From the sequence record CP104424.1: DNA of 64,000 nt; one strand, 5' to 3'. Position numbers and translations under genes: made by a program. The stretch is from a plasmid. The notes below the pieces were generated by a model. The model was not told where the DNA came from, did not search any database, and saw nothing but the letters and a program-made list of their open reading frames with translations. Positions 2,438-12,809 of this stretch are shown one piece after another (within the stretch, counting starts at the first letter, position 1; each line of letters begins with the position of its first letter).

Positions 2438-2671
2438 ATGAGCGAATATTTCAGAATACTTCAGGGACTGCCGGACGGCTCCTTTACCCGCGAACAGGCG
2501 GAAGCCGTTGCCGCACAGTACCGGAACGTCTTTATCGAGGATGATCAGGGAACGCATTTTCGCCTGGTTGTCCGTCAGGATGGCACGTTGATCTGGCGCT
2601 CCTGGAATTTTGAGGACTGTGCCGGGTACTGGATGAAACATGTCATCCGGAATTTCGGCATTCTTAAGTAA
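2438..2671 (+). CDS. hypothetical protein (77 aa)
   Basis: ATG at 2438 preceded by GGAG; ORF track shows a longer GTG-started form from 2411; conserved position between ssb and the ParB-like gene. Confidence 0.45.
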
Positions 2672-2729
2672 GAGAGGTGCCGGACGCGCGAACGTCCGGC
2701 AGGACATAAGCAATTATAAGGGGATGATT

Positions 2730-4688
2730 ATGCCTGTAACGAAGTGTGAACCAGAAACCACCCGCAAAGCAAGCCGTAAATCTGTAAAAACGCAGGAAAC
2801 TGCACTGTCTGCCCTGCTGGCGCAGACGGAGGAAGTGAGTGTGCCGCTGGCTTCACTGATTAAATCACCGCTGAATGTGCGCACGGTGCCGTATTCCGCA
2901 GAGTCCGTCAGCGAACTGGCGGAGTCCATTAAGGGCGTTGGCCTGTTGCAGAATCTGGTCGTGCATACCCTGCCTGGTGACCGTTACGGTGTCGCCGCAG
3001 GTGGTCGCCGACTGGCTGCACTCAACATGCTGGCAGAGCGTGGCATCCTTCCGGCTGACTGGCCTGTACGCGTGAAGGTTATTCCGCAGGAACTGGCGAC
3101 TGCCGCATCAATGACTGAAAACGGTCATCGTCGGGATATGCACCCTGCCGAACAGATTGCCGGATTCCGCGCAATGGCGCAGGAAGGCAAAACGCCTGCA
3201 CAAATCGGTGACTTGCTGGGCTATTCGCCCCGCCACGTTCAGCGAATGCTGAAACTGGCAGACCTTGCACCAGTCATACTGGATGCGCTGGCAGAAGACC
3301 GCATCACCACCGAACACTGTCAGGCGCTGGCACTGGAGAACGACACCGCGCGTCAGGTGCAGGTGTTTGAAGCCGCCTGTCAGTCGGGATGGGGCGGTAA
3401 ACCGGAAGTACAGACCATTCGTCGTCTGGTGACCGAAAGTGAAGTGGCGGTGGCGGGGAACAGTAAATTCCGCTTCGTGGGGGCTGATGCCTTCTCGCCA
3501 GACGAACTGCGCACCGATTTGTTCAGCGACGACGAGGGTGGCTATGTGGACTGCGTGGCGCTCGATGCCGCCCTGCTGGAAAAACTCCAGGCTGTCGCAG
3601 AGTTCCTTCGGGAAGCCGAAGGCTGGGAATGGTGCGCCGGACGCATGGAGCCTGTCGGTGAGTGCCGTGAGGATGCCGGAACATACCGCTGTCTGCCGGA
3701 GCCGGAAGCGGTGCTGACGGAGGCAGAAGAAGAACACCTGAACGAACTGATGACGCGTTACGACGCGCTGGAAAACCAGTGTGAGGAATCCGACCTGCTG
3801 GAAGCAGAAATGAAGCTGATTGACTGCATGGCGAAGGTCAGGGCGTGGACGCCGGAGATGCGTGCCGGAAGTGGCGTGGTGGTGTCCTGGCGTTATGGCA
3901 ACGTATGTGTCCAGCGTGGTGTGCAGTTGCGCAGTGAAGATGACGCGACTGACGACGCTGACCGCACGGAACAGGTGCAGGAGAAAGCGTCAGTGGAGGA
4001 AATCAGCCTGCCGTTGCTGACGAAAATGTCCTCAGAGCGCACGCTGGCAGTCCAGGCGGCACTCATGCAGCAGCCGGACAAATCTCTGGCACTGCTGGCA
4101 TGGACGCTCTGCCTGAATGTGTTTGGCAGCGGGGCGTACAGTAAACCAGCACAAATCAGCCTGGAATGTGAACATTACTCGCTGACCAGCGATGCGCCAT
4201 CGGGGAAGGAAGGTGCCGCATTCATGGCGCTGATGGCAGAAAAAGCCCGTCTTGCTGCCCTGTTACCGGAGGGATGGTCACGGGACATGACGACATTCCT
4301 GTCACTCAGTCAGGAGGTGCTGTTATCCCTGCTCAGCTTCTGCACTGCGTGCAGCATCCACGGTGTTCAGACCCGTGAGTATGGTCACACGTCACGCAGT
4401 CCGCTGGACTCGCTGGAAACCGCTATCGGCTTTCACATGCGCGACTGGTGGCAGCCGACAAAAGCAAACTTCTTCGGACACCTGAAAAAGCCGCAGATTA
4501 TCGCAGCCCTGAATGAGGCAGGACTGTCCGGTGCCGCACGGGACGCGGAGAAGATGAAGAAAGGCGATGCCGCTGAACATGCAGAGTTCCATATGAAAGA
4601 CAACCGCTGGGTGCCTGGCTGGATGTGTTCACCACGTCCACAGACGGATGCCACTGAACGCGCCGATAACCTGGCTGATGCCGCCTGA
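2730..4688 (+). CDS. ParB-like nuclease domain protein (652 aa), leading region
   Basis: ParB/Srx-like N-terminal motif (LIKSPLNVRTVPYS...LQNLVVH...GGRRLAA); RBS aagggg 6 nt before ATG 2730 (track ORF starts at 2640 without RBS). Confidence 0.85.
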   Translation: MPVTKCEPETTRKASRKSVKTQETALSALLAQTEEVSVPLASLIKSPLNVRTVPYSAESVSELAESIKGVGLLQNLVVHTLPGDRYGVAAGGRRLAALNMLAERGILPADWPVRVKVIPQELATAASMTENGHRRDMHPAEQIAGFRAMAQEGKTPAQIGDLLGYSPRHVQRMLKLADLAPVILDALAEDRITTEHCQALALENDTARQVQVFEAACQSGWGGKPEVQTIRRLVTESEVAVAGNSKFRFVGADAFSPDELRTDLFSDDEGGYVDCVALDAALLEKLQAVAEFLREAEGWEWCAGRMEPVGECREDAGTYRCLPEPEAVLTEAEEEHLNELMTRYDALENQCEESDLLEAEMKLIDCMAKVRAWTPEMRAGSGVVVSWRYGNVCVQRGVQLRSEDDATDDADRTEQVQEKASVEEISLPLLTKMSSERTLAVQAALMQQPDKSLALLAWTLCLNVFGSGAYSKPAQISLECEHYSLTSDAPSGKEGAAFMALMAEKARLAALLPEGWSRDMTTFLSLSQEVLLSLLSFCTACSIHGVQTREYGHTSRSPLDSLETAIGFHMRDWWQPTKANFFGHLKKPQIIAALNEAGLSGAARDAEKMKKGDAAEHAEFHMKDNRWVPGWMCSPRPQTDATERADNLADAA

Positions 4689-6946: not shown

Positions 6947-7448
6947 AATGTCTGTTGTTGCACCTGCTGTATACGTTGGAACCTGGCACAAATACAACTG
7001 TGGAAGCATCGCCGGACGCTGGTTTGACCTGACCACGTTTGATGATGAGCGCGACTTTTTCGCCGCCTGCCGTGCTCTTCACCAGGATGAAGCCGATCCT
7101 GAACTGATGTTTCAGGATTATGAGGGATTCCCGGGGAATATGGCCTCTGAATGCCATATCAACTGGGCCTGGGTTGAAGGCTTCCGCCAGGCACGGGATG
7201 AAGGCTGCGAAGAGGCTTATCGTCTCTGGGTGGAGGATACCGGTGAGACGGATTTTGACACCTTCCGCGATGCCTGGTGGGGCGAGGCTGACAGTGAGGA
7301 GGCTTTTGCGGTTGAGTTCGCCAGTGATACCGGCCTGCTGGCTGACGTGCCGGAGACGGTGGCGCTCTATTTTGACTATGAGGCGTATGCGCGGGATTTA
7401 TTCCTGGACTCCTTCACCTTTATTGACGGTCATGTGTTCCGTCGGTGA
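6947..7448 (+). CDS. ardA: antirestriction protein ArdA (166 aa)
   Basis: MSVVAPAVYVGTWHKYNCGSIAGRWFDL... matches ColIb-P9 ArdA; acidic DNA-mimic composition. Confidence 0.9.
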
Positions 7449-7624
7449 TTTACTCCCCCGCTCCGGCGGGGGTATGGCCTGCCAGGCCGCCGGAAAACCC
7501 TGGCAGGCTTACGCCTGCCTGAAATGCAGGAGGGCCGCGCCTGCGGCGCTGCCCTTCCTGCCCGTCATGGTGTGAGGCATTTTTCTGTTATGTCGTTTCT
7601 GTTGTTCTGATTTCCGGAGGCGGG

Positions 7625-8180
7625 GACACCTTCGGCTCCCGGCTGCCTGGCGGCATCCGGTCGTCAGGCCCGACTCCGACAGGCAGCTGCTGGCGCACCC
7701 GCCAGTCTCCGCCGAACCCGCTGGCGCGGTTTCGGGCTGCCGCTACGGTCCGATGTCTGAAAAACCAGGCTTGCAGCGACCGTTCCGGTCGCGCCGCCTC
7801 TGTCGCGCCGTGACCTGCGCTCCCTGCACACCTGACGGTGTGTAAGGAAACTGCGCCTGATGGCGCAGTTGTCTGCCCTTCCGCCGCCCCCCCTGCGGCC
7901 TGTTTCCCCGCTGTGGACTTTCCGGGGGCTGAAGCGGCCACAACACGTTTCAGCCGTCCAGGGGAGAGATGTACCAGCCACAAAACTTTTTGCCGCAAGC
8001 GTCAAAAACTTTTGCGTCTGCCCCCGGACAACTGCCCCGTGCCGTGGCTGTCGCTGCCCCATCGGAAAGGTCCACTGCGGGGAGAAACCCCGAAGAAGTG
8101 GACGGCAGAAGGGGCTTTCGCCCCTCCGGGGGAGCAACCGGTCGGCCCGGCGACCTGATTCAGCAGAAGGAGACGTTTTC
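7625..8180 (+). promoter_or_regulatory. Frpo/ssi-type repeat, copy 2 (upstream of orf144)
   Basis: About 90% identical over >240 nt to 1280-1530 (ggctcccggctgcct...gcgcctgatggcgcag); ends at the RBS of the 8181 ORF. Confidence 0.6.
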
Positions 8181-8615
8181 ATGACAGTCAGCAGCACGAT
8201 TTCCGTTTTTTGCCGCGACGGGGTGTTCCGTACCGTTTACTGCCACCTGCACGGTGAGCCGACCTGGAACGGTCGCATCCTGCATACCCACTATGCCACC
8301 GGTCAGCAGGCCGAAGCCCTGGTTGAACACGGTGATATCCGTTGCCTTGGTCCCCGTTGCGACAAACCCGCCGGGCATACGCTTCAGAACCCGGTGGACG
8401 GTGTGACGGCTTATTACGGACGTGACAGTGGTTTCCGGATGGACAGTGAGGCGCGTGAGTACCGTTCTTTCAGGGAGGCTATTGCCACTGAAAGCACTGA
8501 AGAGGTGCGCTTCCATTATGTGTTCATCGACGGCTACTGGAAGGTGATGTACCGCACGCCGGAAGGCTGGAAGATGAAAGCGCTCGCGCTGGCACTGCGT
8601 CGCTGTCCGGAATGA
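8181..8615 (+). CDS. hypothetical protein (144 aa)
   Basis: RBS aaggag then ATG 8181 directly after ssi copy 2; the longer track ORF from 7860 begins inside the repeat and is rejected. Confidence 0.55.
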   Translation: MTVSSTISVFCRDGVFRTVYCHLHGEPTWNGRILHTHYATGQQAEALVEHGDIRCLGPRCDKPAGHTLQNPVDGVTAYYGRDSGFRMDSEAREYRSFREAIATESTEEVRFHYVFIDGYWKVMYRTPEGWKMKALALALRRCPE

Positions 8616-8707
8616 AAAAAAGCAGGGCGATAAACCCTGCCTTTCTCCGCTGGCGCTTCCCCGTACGGAAGTCCGGCATCTCATTCACTAACTATGGAGA
8701 TTATGCC

Positions 8708-8974
8708 ATGAGACCATCAATTATCTTCGCAACCGCCGAGTATGTAAAGCGTCTGCGTGAAGAGTGCCTGCGGGAGAACAAACCCCTGCACCGCCATACC
8801 CGCTTCAGACGCCAGGAACTGGCACCGGATGAGATTAACCCGGACGTCCTGGCGATGGGCGGTCATATCGCCAGACGCTGCAGTGAGCAGAAGCGGGTAC
8901 GTATCCCCGCTATGAAAGTCAGCGAATGGGGCCACCTGCTCCGCGCGCTTGAAATTGAACGGGTCTGTCACTGA
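8708..8974 (+). CDS. hypothetical protein (88 aa)
   Basis: GGAG 8 nt upstream of ATG 8708; same operon. Confidence 0.45.
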   Translation: MRPSIIFATAEYVKRLREECLRENKPLHRHTRFRRQELAPDEINPDVLAMGGHIARRCSEQKRVRIPAMKVSEWGHLLRALEIERVCH

Positions 8975-9026
8975 TTAACCCCTGCCGTCTGCCTGTGCAG
9001 GTGGCAGGATGTGTTCAGGTACTTTA

Positions 9027-9066
9027 CCAGGAGGAACCGTGAGCAAGATGAAAAACATCACGACGT
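9027..9066 (+). repeat. duplicated Rpn RBS/start remnant (direct repeat of 9523-9561)
   Basis: caggaggaaccgtgagcaagatgaaaaacatcacgacg versus ggaggaaccgtgagtaagaagaaaaacaccacaacg at the true rpn start. Confidence 0.45.
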
Positions 9067-9150
9067 CTGTGTTGCATGGTGTCTCCACAAAAAACAGAAA
9101 AGGGAAACAGATTCTCTTTCATTCAGGGCCCGGGAGGGCTGGAGATAACA

Positions 9151-9540
9151 ATGAAGTCTTGTTTTGATACTGACAAAGCTTTTCATATGTCTTTTGATGA
9201 AGTCACTTTCAACGCTGACAGAATTCGCTCAAAACTGGAACTATTATCCGAAGAACTAATGCCCCGTTGTGGTCTTGTTTATGAGCTATATCAGCGACGT
9301 TTGAGTGCTGCTATTGATAATTTTGTGGCCACATTGCCGACAGAACAACATCTACTGGTCCTGGAACTGGCCCGTGAGGAGTTTGATTACCTTTCCGCAG
9401 AAGAGATTGCTGAAGAAATACGCCGTGACTCAGAACGCGGCTATTGTTGTCATGGCTTTGAACGCAATTGCTGTCCTCTCGGTTGTGGGGATTTGGGCGA
9501 TGATTGCTGCGATGCTGCTGATTTGATGGAGGAACCGTGA
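9151..9540 (+). CDS. acidic Cys-rich hypothetical protein (129 aa)
   Basis: GGAG 6 nt before ATG 9151; C-terminus GYCCHGFERNCCPLGCGDLGDDCCDAADLMEEP (8 Cys); stop overlaps the rpn GTG start (GTGA). Confidence 0.55.
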   Translation: MKSCFDTDKAFHMSFDEVTFNADRIRSKLELLSEELMPRCGLVYELYQRRLSAAIDNFVATLPTEQHLLVLELAREEFDYLSAEEIAEEIRRDSERGYCCHGFERNCCPLGCGDLGDDCCDAADLMEEP

Positions 9541-10427
9541 GTAAGAAGAAAAACACCACAACGCCCACGCCGCATGATGCCGCTTTCCGGTCGTTCCTGG
9601 CGAATCCCGACGTCGCCAGAGATTTTCTGGAACTGCATCTTCCTGCGGAGTACCGGCAGTTGTGCGACCTGTCCACGCTGAAGCTGGAACCCGCCACCTT
9701 TGTAGAGCCGGACCTGCATCAGTACGCCAGCGATATCCTCTGGAGCGTGAAAACCACCGGGGGTGAAGATGGCTATGTTTATACGCTCATCGAGCACCAG
9801 AGCACCGAAAATCTGTACATGCCTTTCCGCATGTTACGTTACAGTGTGGCGGCGATGCAGAGACATCTGGAGCAGCACAAAACGTTGCCACTGGTCATTC
9901 CGGTGCTGTTCTATCACGGTGAGCGCAGCCCGTACCCGTACAGCATGAACTGGCTGGACTGTTTTGAGAATCCGGCGCTTGCGGCTAAAATATACACAAA
10001 GCCGTTTCCGCTGGTTGATATCACTGTCGTTGATGACAATGAAATCATGAACCATCGCCGGATGGCCGCACTGACGCTGCTGATGAAGCATATCCGCCAT
10101 CGTGACATGATGGAGCTGCTGGACAAACTCCCGCAGGTCATGGTGGAAATTTCAGACGAGCAGGTGCGTGTTCTGATTCATTACATCGTTAACGCAGGGG
10201 ACTCTGTATCACCGGAATTTATGCGGGCGCTGGCTGAGCGTCTGCCGCAGCATGAGGATAAACTGATGACTATCGCAGAACGTCTTGAGCAAAAAGGTCG
10301 CCAGGAAGGAGCGCTTGAAAAAGCCCTGGCTATTGCGTGCCAGCTTCAGAAAATGGGGATGACGCCGGAGCAGATTAAGCAGGCTACCGGACTTTCCGAT
10401 GACGAACTGAAGAAAATCACTCACTGA
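9537..10427 (+). CDS. rpn: Rpn family recombination-promoting nuclease / YhgA-like (296 aa, GTG start)
   Basis: N-terminus ...HDAAFRSFLANPDVARDFLELHLP...; PD-(D/E)xK-like core; C-terminal repeat domain ...MTIAERLEQKGRQEG...; typical Rpn (Transposase_31) architecture. Confidence 0.85.
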   Translation: MSKKKNTTTPTPHDAAFRSFLANPDVARDFLELHLPAEYRQLCDLSTLKLEPATFVEPDLHQYASDILWSVKTTGGEDGYVYTLIEHQSTENLYMPFRMLRYSVAAMQRHLEQHKTLPLVIPVLFYHGERSPYPYSMNWLDCFENPALAAKIYTKPFPLVDITVVDDNEIMNHRRMAALTLLMKHIRHRDMMELLDKLPQVMVEISDEQVRVLIHYIVNAGDSVSPEFMRALAERLPQHEDKLMTIAERLEQKGRQEGALEKALAIACQLQKMGMTPEQIKQATGLSDDELKKITH

Positions 10428-10437
10428 TGAGAACCAC

Positions 10438-10466
10438 AAAGCCCGGCAAAATGCCGGGCTTTTTTG
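10438..10466 (+). terminator. rho-independent terminator after rpn
   Basis: agcccggcaaaatgccgggcttttttg hairpin plus T-run. Confidence 0.6.
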
Positions 10467-10488
10467 TCAGCAGGAGCAGAGCAAACAT

Positions 10489-10672
10489 CATGACGATTGC
10501 AGAACGTCTTATACAGAAAGGTTTCGACGAGGGTTTTAAACAAGGGGCTCTAGAAGTGGCGCGGGAAATAGCCTGCCGGCTTCGGGATATAGGCTGGCCG
10601 CCGGAACGGATTCAGGAGGTCACGGGACTTTCCGGTGAAGAACTGAAAAAGCTGTTTCCTGATGAGCAGTAG
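10489..10672 (+). CDS. standalone Rpn C-terminal domain fragment (60 aa)
   Basis: MTIAERLIQKGFDEGFKQGALEVAREIACRLRDIGWPPERIQEVTGLSGEELKKL parallels the C-terminal 60 aa of the upstream Rpn (MTIAERLEQKGRQEGALEKALAIACQLQKMGMTPEQIKQATGLSDDELKKI). Confidence 0.4.
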
Positions 10673-10702
10673 CCTGGCATTCAGCCAGGCTGTGAATCAC
10701 GC

Positions 10703-10954
10703 TCACACATTCCCTGCCGTTTCCCCCAGTTCATTTTCCAGTCGCCTGATGATATCTGCCTTACGCATCCCCTGCATGTGAGGCAGCAGGTCACGGACTG
10801 AAAGTGCCTGGGTGGTCCTCCAGACGGTGACGTCCACCTGTTCCGCATTTTCCCAGGCGTGCCATGTTCTCTGTGTCACGCCAAATTCTCTGGCCGCTTT
10901 TTCGCGTGACCAGAGCATGCTTTTTCGCCAGATTCGCAGTTCCCAGCCGGTCAT
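10703..10954 (-). CDS. XRE-type HTH DNA-binding protein (83 aa)
   Basis: LWSREKAAREFGVTQRTWHAWE is an XRE/Cro-like helix-turn-helix; start faces palindromic operator pair. Confidence 0.55.
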   Translation of the reverse strand: MTGWELRIWRKSMLWSREKAAREFGVTQRTWHAWENAEQVDVTVWRTTQALSVRDLLPHMQGMRKADIIRRLENELGETAGNV

Positions 10955-10965
10955 AAAATACCTTT

Positions 10966-11057
10966 GAAAAAGTGAAAAAACTTCACTTTATTTTATCACC
11001 ATAATCACCAAATCAGCGCGAAAAATAAGTGTGAAAAAGTGAAGAAACTTCACTTTT
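10966..11057. promoter_or_regulatory. two identical palindromic operators in the promoter region of the HTH gene
   Basis: aaagtgaa-aaaac-ttcacttt (10968-10988) and aaagtgaa-gaaac-ttcacttt (11035-11055); perfect 8-bp arms, centres ~67 bp apart. Confidence 0.55.
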
Positions 11058-11159
11058 TTTGATTGTGGATGTCGTGCGGTTTTCTCTGTTTTCACCTGTG
11101 CGGGAGTGGTGCGCCAGTGACCACCACATGCCATTGTTGTGCCGTCGTTTTTCTTCAGT

Positions 11160-11525
11160 CACGCCGGATGCGGCGCTCCCTGCACACCTTACGGTGTGTA
11201 AGGCCACTGCGCCTGATGGCGCAGCTGTCTCTGCCTGTCTGCCGCCGCACTGCGGCCTGTTCTCCGCAGACGGACTTTCCGGGGGTACATACATGACCAC
11301 ATCCCGTTTCAGTCGTCCAGGGGAGAGATGTACCAGCCACAAAACTTTTTGCCGCAGGCGTCAAAAACTTTTGCGTCTGCCCCCGGACAACTGCCCCGTG
11401 ACGTGGTGAGCGTCCCCCGTCGGAAAGGTCCACTGCGGGGAAATCCCCGAAGACCCGGACGGCAGAAGGAGCTTCGCTCCTCCGGGAAATGACCTGGCTG
11501 ACCCGGCAGTCGTGACGATGAGGAG
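11160..11525 (+). promoter_or_regulatory. Frpo/ssi-type repeat, copy 3 (3-prime two-thirds only) upstream of DUF4942 gene
   Basis: Shares ...ctgcgctccctgcacacct.acggtgtgt.agg..actgcgcctgatggcgcag... and downstream gtccaggggagagatgtaccagccacaaaactttttgccgca.gcgtcaaaaacttttgcgtctgcccccggacaactgccccgtg with copy 2. Confidence 0.55.
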
Positions 11526-11530
11526 ACAAT

Positions 11531-12382
11531 GTGATGAATCAGACTTTACCCACTGCTGACCTGAATACTGCCGGCACGACAGATGTTATTCCGTCTGTGG
11601 CTATCGACCGCATCATCGCGCAGCGTAACGAAGGTATTGCACTGTTCATGCAGGCGATGGAATGCCTGGCGACAGCGCGCAGGATTCTGCTCGATGCGTC
11701 AGGTGATATTTTTCTTTACGGGTTTGAAGACTGCGTGACTGACTCCGTTCGATGCATGGATAAACCGGAAGAAGCAAAAAAGAATATCACCCGTCTTGCC
11801 GATCGGAAAATCTGGGATCGCCTGATGACGGATACTGGCATGTACACCTTCATGAGTTCATGCCAGCGTGATGAGTGGAACAGCCAGCTGATGAGCGACA
11901 CCTGTCCTGAAATCACCCTGGACAATGTACTGGCAACATTCCGCCATCTGAATGCCAGCAAGATGCAGACATTTGAACAGGGACTGATTGATGTCTACCG
12001 GAAATTGTCATGGGATTACAGAACCAATAATCCCTGCCGTCTGGGTAAGAAAATCATTATTGAAAACCTGCTGTACCGCTGGAGTAACGGGCGTGTGACG
12101 ATGGACTGCAGCGGACGGGAGGCACTGGATGACCTGGTACGTCCGTTTTATCTGCTGGAGGCGCGCAACGTTCCTGACTTCAGGAACAGCATCGGGGCGC
12201 AGTATGGTGAATTTCTCGGGAACGGCGACAATGTCGGTAAGCTATTAGAAGGGGAATATTTTACGGTGCGTGGCTACCAGAAAGGGACCGTACACATTGT
12301 CTTTAAGCGTCCTGACCTTGTTGAAAAACTGAATGATATTATTGCACGGCATTATCCTGGTGCATTGCCGCCACGAGTCTGA
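11531..12382 (+). CDS. DUF4942-like leading-region protein (283 aa)
   Basis: Large conserved ORF directly after ssi copy 3; last leading gene before oriT as in F/IncI (orf273-like position). Confidence 0.7.
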   Translation: MMNQTLPTADLNTAGTTDVIPSVAIDRIIAQRNEGIALFMQAMECLATARRILLDASGDIFLYGFEDCVTDSVRCMDKPEEAKKNITRLADRKIWDRLMTDTGMYTFMSSCQRDEWNSQLMSDTCPEITLDNVLATFRHLNASKMQTFEQGLIDVYRKLSWDYRTNNPCRLGKKIIIENLLYRWSNGRVTMDCSGREALDDLVRPFYLLEARNVPDFRNSIGAQYGEFLGNGDNVGKLLEGEYFTVRGYQKGTVHIVFKRPDLVEKLNDIIARHYPGALPPRV

Positions 12383-12392
12383 TTAAACAGAA

Positions 12393-12425
12393 AAGCCCTG
12401 GTATTTATGCCGGGGCTTTTTTTTC
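12393..12425. terminator. bidirectional rho-independent terminator
   Basis: aaaagccctggtatttatgccggggcttttttttctg. Confidence 0.6.
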
Positions 12426-12467
12426 TGTAATCATCATAATCTCAGAACACGATGTGACATTGTCACA

Positions 12468-12809
12468 TCAATTGTTGTTCATATCGATGCCATCTTTCCT
12501 GCCTGAATCTGTCTTTTTAGGTGCTGTTTTAGAGGAAGAACGGCGGGATAGTTTTTTCGATTCTGCTTCCCGAATAATGTCACGAAGTGCCTTCTCTCCT
12601 ACTTCATACCCTGCATTTTTGAGCGTGTCACGAACATCTGCCAGTGTATAACCCTTAGTCCTTACCAGGACAATGATGTCATCACGAATGGCATCAAGAA
12701 AATCACGCAATGTTTTCCGTTGAGCGGTGAGATCTGGCAATTCCGATAAAGCAGCTTTTGCCAGCTGGATGTCATCATCTGAGTAAAATTTTTTAGAAGC
12801 CATTGGCAC
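12468..12809 (-). CDS. hypothetical small basic protein (113 aa) adjacent to oriT
   Basis: MASKKFYSDDDIQLAKAALSEL...; lysine-rich C-terminus; stop overlaps perfect 9-bp IR gatgtgaca-t-tgtcacatc (12451-12469). Confidence 0.5.
   Translation of the reverse strand: MPMASKKFYSDDDIQLAKAALSELPDLTAQRKTLRDFLDAIRDDIIVLVRTKGYTLADVRDTLKNAGYEVGEKALRDIIREAESKKLSRRSSSKTAPKKTDSGRKDGIDMNNN

Follow-up and report, generated by a model that had tools for sequence, protein, structure and literature searches.

A probable Rpn long/short toxin-antitoxin module with an extra tail gene, rpnSs, in the leading region of an IncI-complex plasmid

We analyzed a stretch of 64,000 nucleotides (nt) of plasmid DNA from the sequence record CP104424.1, here called the window, with a focus on the nuclease gene rpn (ygdB in the IncI annotation) and on orf60, a small open reading frame (ORF) downstream of it. 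All window coordinates are relative to position 1 of this stretch. The region around the two genes probably represents the rpn module of an IncI-complex leading region and an example of the Rpn long/short toxin-antitoxin architecture known from the literature, with orf60 as an extra tail gene, rpnSs. Rpn proteins are toxic DNA endonucleases (RpnL), as described by Zhong et al. (2023, PNAS, PMC10400941). Their variable C-terminal domain is also translated from an internal start, and the resulting short protein RpnS blocks RpnL (PMC10400941). Separate downstream rpnSs genes, like ypaA after rpnE or rpnCSs, were found on chromosomes and plasmids and are gained and lost (PMC10400941). The layout of the window had been flagged in a preliminary description of this DNA; it is of a kind already published (rpnSs, e.g., rpnE-ypaA, PMC10400941), and thousands of records carry an annotation of the locus.

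The rpn gene is full-length, as had been proposed. Its product matches PF04754 with an E-value of 1.3e-78 (residues 11-207) and TIGR01784 with 176.7 bits (cut-off 52.1), and it shares 54% identity with RpnA from E. coli K-12. Mutation of D11, D63, E82, Q84 and R94 inactivates RpnA (PMC5350276). These residues correspond to D14, D66, E86, Q88 and R98 of the window Rpn and are invariant in an alignment with RpnA and RpnE. Judged by its sequence, rpn of the window is an RpnA-like PD-(D/E)XK nuclease gene which keeps every catalytic residue of RpnA; activity and toxicity of the product are predicted. The tail domain of Rpn proteins is described by the Pfam family PF27070 (HTH_Rpn_C). This family is recorded for 296-residue RpnL proteins at the rpn position in two related loci (L095 and L097), which were matched to the window by position and not by sequence. 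In two other loci rpn is frameshifted (pseudogene or split) and the downstream rpnSs is intact (L008 2579-3464, from the IncK2/Z plasmid pSTEC399_1, and L096 1112-2001).

In alignments, M244 of the window Rpn falls on residue 1 of the RpnA-S chain whose crystal structure is known (7TH0) and on M244 of RpnA, which is a mapped internal start (PMC10400941). The internal start, located where the C-terminal three-helix domain begins, is retained in the window, and rpn is therefore predicted to give its own RpnS of 53 amino acids (aa), which makes orf60 a second tail gene. The earlier framing as a toxin with a short-form antitoxin agrees with the published system (PMC10400941), but orf60 cannot be regarded as the short form, since rpn keeps the RpnS start at M244. 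A promoter-like site (TTGAGA-16-TAAAAT, 10/12) is located inside rpn at 9964-9991, about 275 nt 5' of the internal RpnS start, in a scan that gave 3 sites where 1.7 were expected. An internal promoter is known for E. coli rpn genes, and the site is a candidate counterpart. The window gene resembles K-12 RpnA in its catalytic residues, in the internal Met 244 and in a tail that can be aligned to 7TH0 (PMC5350276). RpnA differs in being chromosomal and without a downstream tail gene, and the K-12 allele lacks the repeats. RpnP2_LS, a plasmid-encoded Rpn of ECOR13, protects against T-even phages (PMC10400941). By its description, with which alone we compared it, it is likewise a plasmid-borne long/short pair, and the long form alone is toxic in RpnP2; a leading-region context or a downstream rpnSs is not described in the main text of that paper.

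The small ORF behind rpn had been described as a diverged copy of the C-terminal domain of Rpn, and an alignment bore this out. With residues 244-294 of the window Rpn, orf60 shares 32 of 55 positions (58%; BLASTP, E-value 9e-17, one 4-residue gap). At the DNA level, the rpn tail and orf60 are 75% identical between 10266-10309 and 10490-10533 and 72% identical between 10306-10414 and 10542-10650. The similarity begins about 25 nt 5' of each ATG and extends to the stop codons. orf60 also matches positions 219-273 of TIGR01784, and PF27070 is precomputed on many of its homologues. For an AlphaFold2 model of orf60 (predicted local distance difference test, pLDDT, 76) the best match in the PDB is RpnA-S (7TH0), with a probability of 0.94 and a template modeling (TM) score of 0.70 on the target. 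In a search of 5.8 billion proteins, the homologues of orf60 form 334 clusters, the best 120 of which all measure 60-104 aa. The length of orf60 homologues varies from 52 to 76 aa in steps of 4 aa (12 nt) because of the FK(E/Q/K)G repeats. A second type of in-frame length change is seen in an RpnSs variant of 67 aa (P0002, ENA), in which seven residues of helix 2 are duplicated in tandem (REIACRL REIACRL). The newest NCBI annotation names some copies of orf60 “RpnC/YadD family protein”.

The orf60 cassette was found in about 2025 plasmids, with start codon and frame preserved. Among 5426 complete E. coli genomes, 1340 carry it, and plasmids account for 1953 of its 1981 places there. The ratio of nonsynonymous to synonymous polymorphism (pN/pS) is 0.32 in frame versus 0.72 and 1.42 in the other frames (52 non-repeat codons, 54 distinct sequences). 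orf60 is under purifying selection. Of the coordinates given earlier for the ORF (10489-10672) the end stands, and the start has to be corrected to the ATG at 10490. This Met is conserved even in lineages that lack the upstream ATG at 10427. The latter ATG overlaps the rpn stop codon (TGATG) and starts an 81-residue form predicted by the Prokaryotic Genome Annotation Pipeline (PGAP), which reads through the hairpin between the two genes. This form was rejected, since many lineages lack the ATG and the 21 added codons (10427-10489) show no conservation as coding sequence (pN/pS 0.78). The hairpin itself, with its T-run, agrees with the terminator noted in the preliminary description, and it is kept in other lineages with a changed sequence.

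For a comparison of tails we used 80 metagenome loci and 72 loci around nine RpnSs alleles. The RpnL tails fall into three types, namely R (the type of the window, with RQEG/RMEG repeats), I (IQQG repeats) and K (IQKG/IQQG repeats followed by RMEEKQ). They carry zero to six RQEG/RMEG units, or IQQG/IQKG units (126 loci), and the rpn genes among plasmids are 891, 903, 915 or 927 nt long. The free-standing cassette that adjoins the downstream helix-turn-helix (HTH) gene is always of F type, as in the window. Among the architectures are N-R + F, N-I + F and N-I + R + F, the third of which has a free R cassette nearly identical to the fused tail of the window between rpn and F. Such a series of three tail cassettes (fused I, free R, free F) is present in L010 (2510-3183) and also in L031, L056, L057, L069, L104, L105 and L122-L130. 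An I-type Rpn allele is identical to the window Rpn over the first ~185 residues and diverges from about residue 188. The closest fused relative of orf60 is the R-type tail, the window's own (58%), and the F cassette also follows the more distant I- and K-type tails. RpnC_Ss and RpnE_Ss cluster with the RpnS of their own upstream gene (PMC10400941). An F-type tail fused to a nuclease domain was not found, neither among the best 120 homologues, which reach at most 104 aa, nor on plasmids, where matches inside Rpn genes show less than 60% identity.

The cassette stacks fit a repeated replacement or duplication of the C-terminal module in which older tails are left downstream. The same process was mentioned by Zhong et al. 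for the gain, loss and fusion of rpnSs (PMC10400941). In a Salmonella Infantis IncFIB plasmid (pESI-like megaplasmid NZ_CP121071.1; L007 2516-2728), an unannotated rpnSs is almost identical to the tail of its own rpn, one repeat shorter, and ends with KKLFAD like the IncI F type. It may represent a younger stage of the same tail displacement.

The arrangement of the window resembles rpnE-ypaA and rpnC-rpnCSs (PMC10400941), in which a full-length rpn gene that contains an internal RpnS start has a small copy of its tail, beginning at the equivalent Met, downstream on the same strand. In the window as in K-12, the tail copy is one 4-residue repeat off its neighbor (the K-12 RpnE tail and YpaA differ by one repeat) and the repeat number varies between strains. 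Such variation of four-residue repeats among strains has been described for Rpn tails (PMC10400941). In contrast to rpnE-ypaA, the tail copy of the window is far more diverged (58% versus near-identity) and lies 62 nt from rpn with a terminator between them, instead of 12 nt. Furthermore, the window-type cassette is the same whatever the tail of its neighbor, it occurs in stacks of two, and the pair is located in a plasmid leading region behind a single-stranded DNA promoter.

What orf60 does can be approached by asking whether it matches its neighbor. The preliminary description had suggested that it is the cognate trans-acting antitoxin of the neighboring RpnL. It would then supply a second dose of RpnS within a two-gene toxin-antitoxin system that stabilizes or protects the plasmid. 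We consider this explanation unlikely, although orf60 shows homology to the RpnS region from the equivalent Met onward, always adjoins rpn in the same orientation and is under purifying selection, and although RpnS proteins neutralise RpnL (PMC10400941). One and the same F-type cassette accompanies R-, I- and K-type Rpn tails. The repeat units differ in sequence (FKxG in the orf60 type, RQEG/RMEG/IQQG in the Rpn tails) and the repeat numbers vary independently, with that of orf60 unlike its neighbor's in 45 of 48 distinct combinations. It was shown that one extra repeat in RpnC_S abolishes neutralisation of RpnC_L and that RpnA-S and RpnB-S show no cross-protection (PMC10400941). In addition, rpn encodes its own RpnS, and a terminator separates it from orf60. 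The three tail types, the usual length difference and the RpnC repeat experiment thus speak against a simple cognate antitoxin; a weaker or different pairing of RpnSs and RpnL may be compatible with the mismatch data. We also analyzed how often the insert in helix 1 has equal length in both proteins, counting distinct combinations with shared ancestry uncorrected. Equal length was seen in 3 of 48 combinations over all tail types (expected 7.7; P ~0.03) and in 1 of 31 for the R type (expected 4.7; P ~0.03); the K type shows no deficit (2 of 7, expected 1.9).

Even less probable is that orf60 is an inert relic without useful translation, i.e., the displaced tail of an older rpn allele whose C-terminal module was replaced. 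The position behind a strong terminator, the weak Shine-Dalgarno sequence, the downstream displacement of tails seen in the cassette stacks and the gain and loss of rpnSs noted by Zhong et al. (PMC10400941) would agree with this, and the variation in repeat number could be pure slippage of 12 nt. Against it stand the in-frame pN/pS of 0.32, the start codon and frame kept in the plasmids that carry it, and the finding that YpaA, the K-12 equivalent of rpnSs, is made (PMC10400941). The least probable explanation is that orf60 acts early in the recipient as an anti-defence decoy against Rpn of the recipient chromosome or of rival plasmids, or that it is a stored cassette for tail switching of RpnL. 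Leading regions are sites enriched in orphan antitoxins (PMC11541004), orf60 is independent of the tail type of its neighbor, R-type tails occur both fused and free, so that cassettes move, and combinations in which its repeat number equals that of the resident R-type tail are weakly under-represented. However, the lack of any Rpn with an F-type tail in the searches described above and the almost exclusive location of the cassette on plasmids in E. coli argue against a decoy for chromosomal Rpn; a decoy role as such had also been proposed in the preliminary description. The position downstream of the terminator does not favor a decoy either, and since the F cassette is never fused to a nuclease domain, it is not used for tail switching. 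A more far-reaching idea, to which we give as little credence as to the relic, is that the F-type RpnSs is an obligately free-standing tail protein whose register is kept different from that of the resident RpnL and RpnS. The tail cassettes would then form an interaction code in which matching is selected against, and RpnSs would act on foreign Rpn variants during entry or plasmid competition.

The genomic context places the module in the early-transferred part of a conjugative plasmid. We found 2069 plasmid records that match the window region with 95-100% identity, nearly all of them conjugative IncI1/Iγ/K/B/O/Z plasmids from E. coli, Salmonella and Shigella. An annotated relative carries, in this order, ssb, parB-like, psiB, psiA, ardA, orf144, orf88, orf129 (ccgAII), rpn, rpnSs, convergent HTH, DUF4942 and nikA/nikB. 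The rpn block belongs to the IncI leading region beside oriT, as had been assumed before. The operon that contains rpn starts directly after an Frpo/ssi-like repeat. Three such repeats of about 350 nt divide the leading region, with one before ssb (1437-1783), one before the rpn block (7781-8130) and one before DUF4942 (11155-11486). Repeats of this kind are Frpo-type single-stranded DNA promoters in IncI leading regions (PMC3817090, PMC12672017). An Rfam scan of window positions 7000-12500 gave no match. In pESBL-EA11, the operons with the strongest induction at 15 min after transfer are reported to be under the control of the three class-1 ssi promoters (PMC12672017). This plasmid has the same trio of orf129 (ccgAII), rpn and rpnSs as the window.

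If the stretch is a Rpn long/short module with an extra tail gene, as we think probable, the following course can be assumed. After transfer, orf144, orf88, ccgAII and rpn would be transcribed early and together from the Frpo-type promoter in front of the rpn block. The main restraint on RpnL would be its own intragenic RpnS. RpnSs would indeed be made as a protein and would act in trans, pairing with Rpn tails through helix 1, with a specificity shifted off the resident RpnL, and might serve as a modulator or as a second-specificity antitoxin instead of a cognate one. Several points weigh against this reading. A strong terminator precedes orf60, the Shine-Dalgarno sequence of the gene is weak (AGGAG or GAG, 13 and 8 nt upstream, respectively), and a promoter scan found no convincing promoter for it. 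The candidate TTGTCA-16-CATCAT is poor, overlaps the ATG and was not accepted. The avoidance of equal repeat numbers is a weak lead, given P ~0.03 with shared ancestry uncorrected and no deficit for the K-type tail, and the argument from repeat mismatch depends on a single experiment with RpnC. Finally, the rpn operon was placed among the six induced operons of pESBL by position and not from expression values.

To the published architecture this analysis adds the series of three cassette types, an F cassette that is never fused and is under purifying selection, a corrected start of orf60, a defined ccgAII insertion and a weak hint that an equal repeat number with the R-type tail is avoided. 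IncI-complex plasmids are major carriers of extended-spectrum β-lactamase (ESBL) and other resistance genes. Roughly one in four of the complete E. coli genomes searched carries the module, which lies immediately downstream of a type of promoter that becomes active on the single strand as it enters. Should the Rpn nuclease and its two tail proteins be produced within minutes of transfer, they could influence how the plasmid establishes itself, whether rivals are excluded or how the new host is defended against phages. The tail types and repeat numbers collected here form a natural series, which offers material for testing how repeat length controls the specificity between RpnS and RpnL.

Table 1. 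Location of the rpn module and its neighboring features in the window.
Feature	Position	Strand	Characteristics
Frpo/ssi-like single-strand-promoter repeat (middle of three)	7781..8130	+	copies at 1437-1783 and 11155-11486, 84% identical
Decayed duplicate of rpn ribosome-binding site and start	9030..9081	+	GGAGGA 9030-9035, GTG 9039-9041, first ~14 codons
orf129 (CcgAII family), 129 aa, acidic	9151..9540	+	conserved C-x-H-G-x5-C-C-P-x-G-C-G-D motif
rpn (ygdB), full-length RpnL, 296 aa, GTG start	9537..10427	+	PD-(D/E)XK nuclease domain and HTH_Rpn_C tail
Predicted intragenic RpnS, 53 aa	10254..10427	+	R-type tail with one RQEG repeat; GAGGA 10254-10258, 7-nt spacer, ATG 10266 (M244)
Intrinsic-terminator-like hairpin between rpn and orf60	10438..10468	+	11-bp stem, 3-nt loop, T-run; -27.5 kcal/mol, z -4.0
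orf60 (rpnSs), free-standing F-type HTH_Rpn_C cassette, 60 aa	10490..10672	+	FDEG and FKQG repeats; homology to Rpn tail
Convergent HTH regulator gene, 83 aa	10703..10954	-	HTH_31, E-value 6e-5; adjoins rpnSs in all loci examined

Upstream of rpn, orf129 agrees with the earlier description as an acidic, Cys-rich product (pI 4.4; 29 D and E versus 13 K and R; 9 Cys) whose TGA (9538-9540) overlaps the rpn GTG (9537-9539) as GTGA. It shares 76% aa identity over about 100 residues and 80% nt identity (9205-9505) with CcgAII of IncN plasmids (pKM101/R46 leading region), including the Cys/His motif and the leading-region site. The CcgAII family is small, with 58 homologue clusters, many of them named CcgAII, and conserved YELYQRRLS and C-x-H-G-x5-CCP-x-GCGD motifs. 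In contrast to the IncN protein, orf129 is longer by 12-27 aa at the N-terminus and differs in its C-terminal tail (DDCCDAADLMEEP). The IncN gene stands alone and stops about 11 codons earlier; orf129 is embedded at the rpn start, where it continues into the rpn ribosome-binding site and ends at the GTGA. For this reason the overlap may be a by-product of the junction. A translational coupling from orf129 to rpn is plausible from this arrangement. An AlphaFold2 model of orf129 is a helical bundle (pLDDT 78); the PDB contained no fold match to it, and neither Pfam and NCBIfam nor PADLOC gave a match, in the last case no convincing one. The GenBank name “cobalamin biosynthesis protein CbiX” (CP088354.1) and the label “antirestriction” (PMC3817090) found no support. 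The location of ccgAII beside a transposase gene between Frpo repeats was already recorded in 2013 (PMC3817090).

The duplicated rpn start around orf129 is real, but its coordinates (9027-9066 versus 9523-9561 in the preliminary description) had to be corrected to 9030-9081 versus 9528-9579, with 41 of 52 positions identical and a core of 32 of 36 (9030-9065 versus 9528-9563). From the remnant GTG at 9039 an ORF of 42 codons runs to 9167, 16 nt beyond the ATG of orf129. In the IncK2/Z lineage the remnant is in frame with ccgAII, which gives a product of 171 aa (P0125). The proposal that orf129 was recombined in at the rpn start was supported by comparison with other plasmids. About 80% of the related plasmids lack the orf129 insertion and have a single rpn start, and the same remnant 30-mer and junction is found in 34 of 35 ccgAII-positive loci. 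Most of 8975-9540 is held by 491 of ~2500 plasmids, and ~1960 match 8975-9065 alone, located under the rpn gene. In a plasmid without ccgAII (L004), positions 2028-2591 correspond to 8501-9065 of the window and 2556-4176 to 9528-11100. This means that the window has an insertion of 498 bp flanked by a 36-nt duplicate of the rpn ribosome-binding site and start. Since the common IncI configuration has a single copy and the window has the insertion with orf129, the duplicate is not a chance match.

The functional rpn start (the copy at 9528) is identical to that of L004. The upstream copy shares substitutions with the 92%-identical IncK2/Z lineage, which indicates that the insertion event is old and single. 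The insertion that carries ccgAII lies at codon ~9-14 of rpn; through it the ribosome-binding site and start of rpn came to be present twice, and the stop codon of ccgAII came to overlap the rpn GTG. ccgAII may now be translated from the old rpn signals or from its own GGAG, and terminating ribosomes could feed rpn initiation. An exact 21-mer scan of GTDB genomes for a donor allele of the remnant gave two chance matches (Ferruginibacter, Vibrio). The remnant and orf60 were also considered as the two ends of one older rpn with a replaced middle. This was rejected, since ccgAII-less plasmids have orf60 without the remnant, so that the two go back to independent events. The old annotation of rpn as an insertion sequence or transposase was likewise not accepted. 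No flanking inverted repeats were found in 8600-11100, and the sole flanking direct repeat is the 36-52-nt duplication of the rpn start, which encloses ccgAII and not rpn. The same conclusion, that the Rpn family are not insertion sequences, was drawn by Zhong et al. (PMC10400941).

A few further features were observed around the module. The 144-codon ORF at 8181-8615 is named “post-segregation killing protein PndC” in GenBank (CP088354.1, L003), a name that no family match backs here. Just upstream of the minus-strand HTH gene lies a 42-nt direct repeat (86%; 10955-10996 and 11022-11063) with a palindrome, AAAGTGAA..AACTTCACTTT, in each copy. The repeat pair looks like a candidate operator pair for the HTH regulator. 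A hairpin (GCCTGGC-ATTCA-GCCAGGC, 10673-10691), which may be a bidirectional terminator, occupies the 30 nt that separate rpnSs from the convergent HTH gene.

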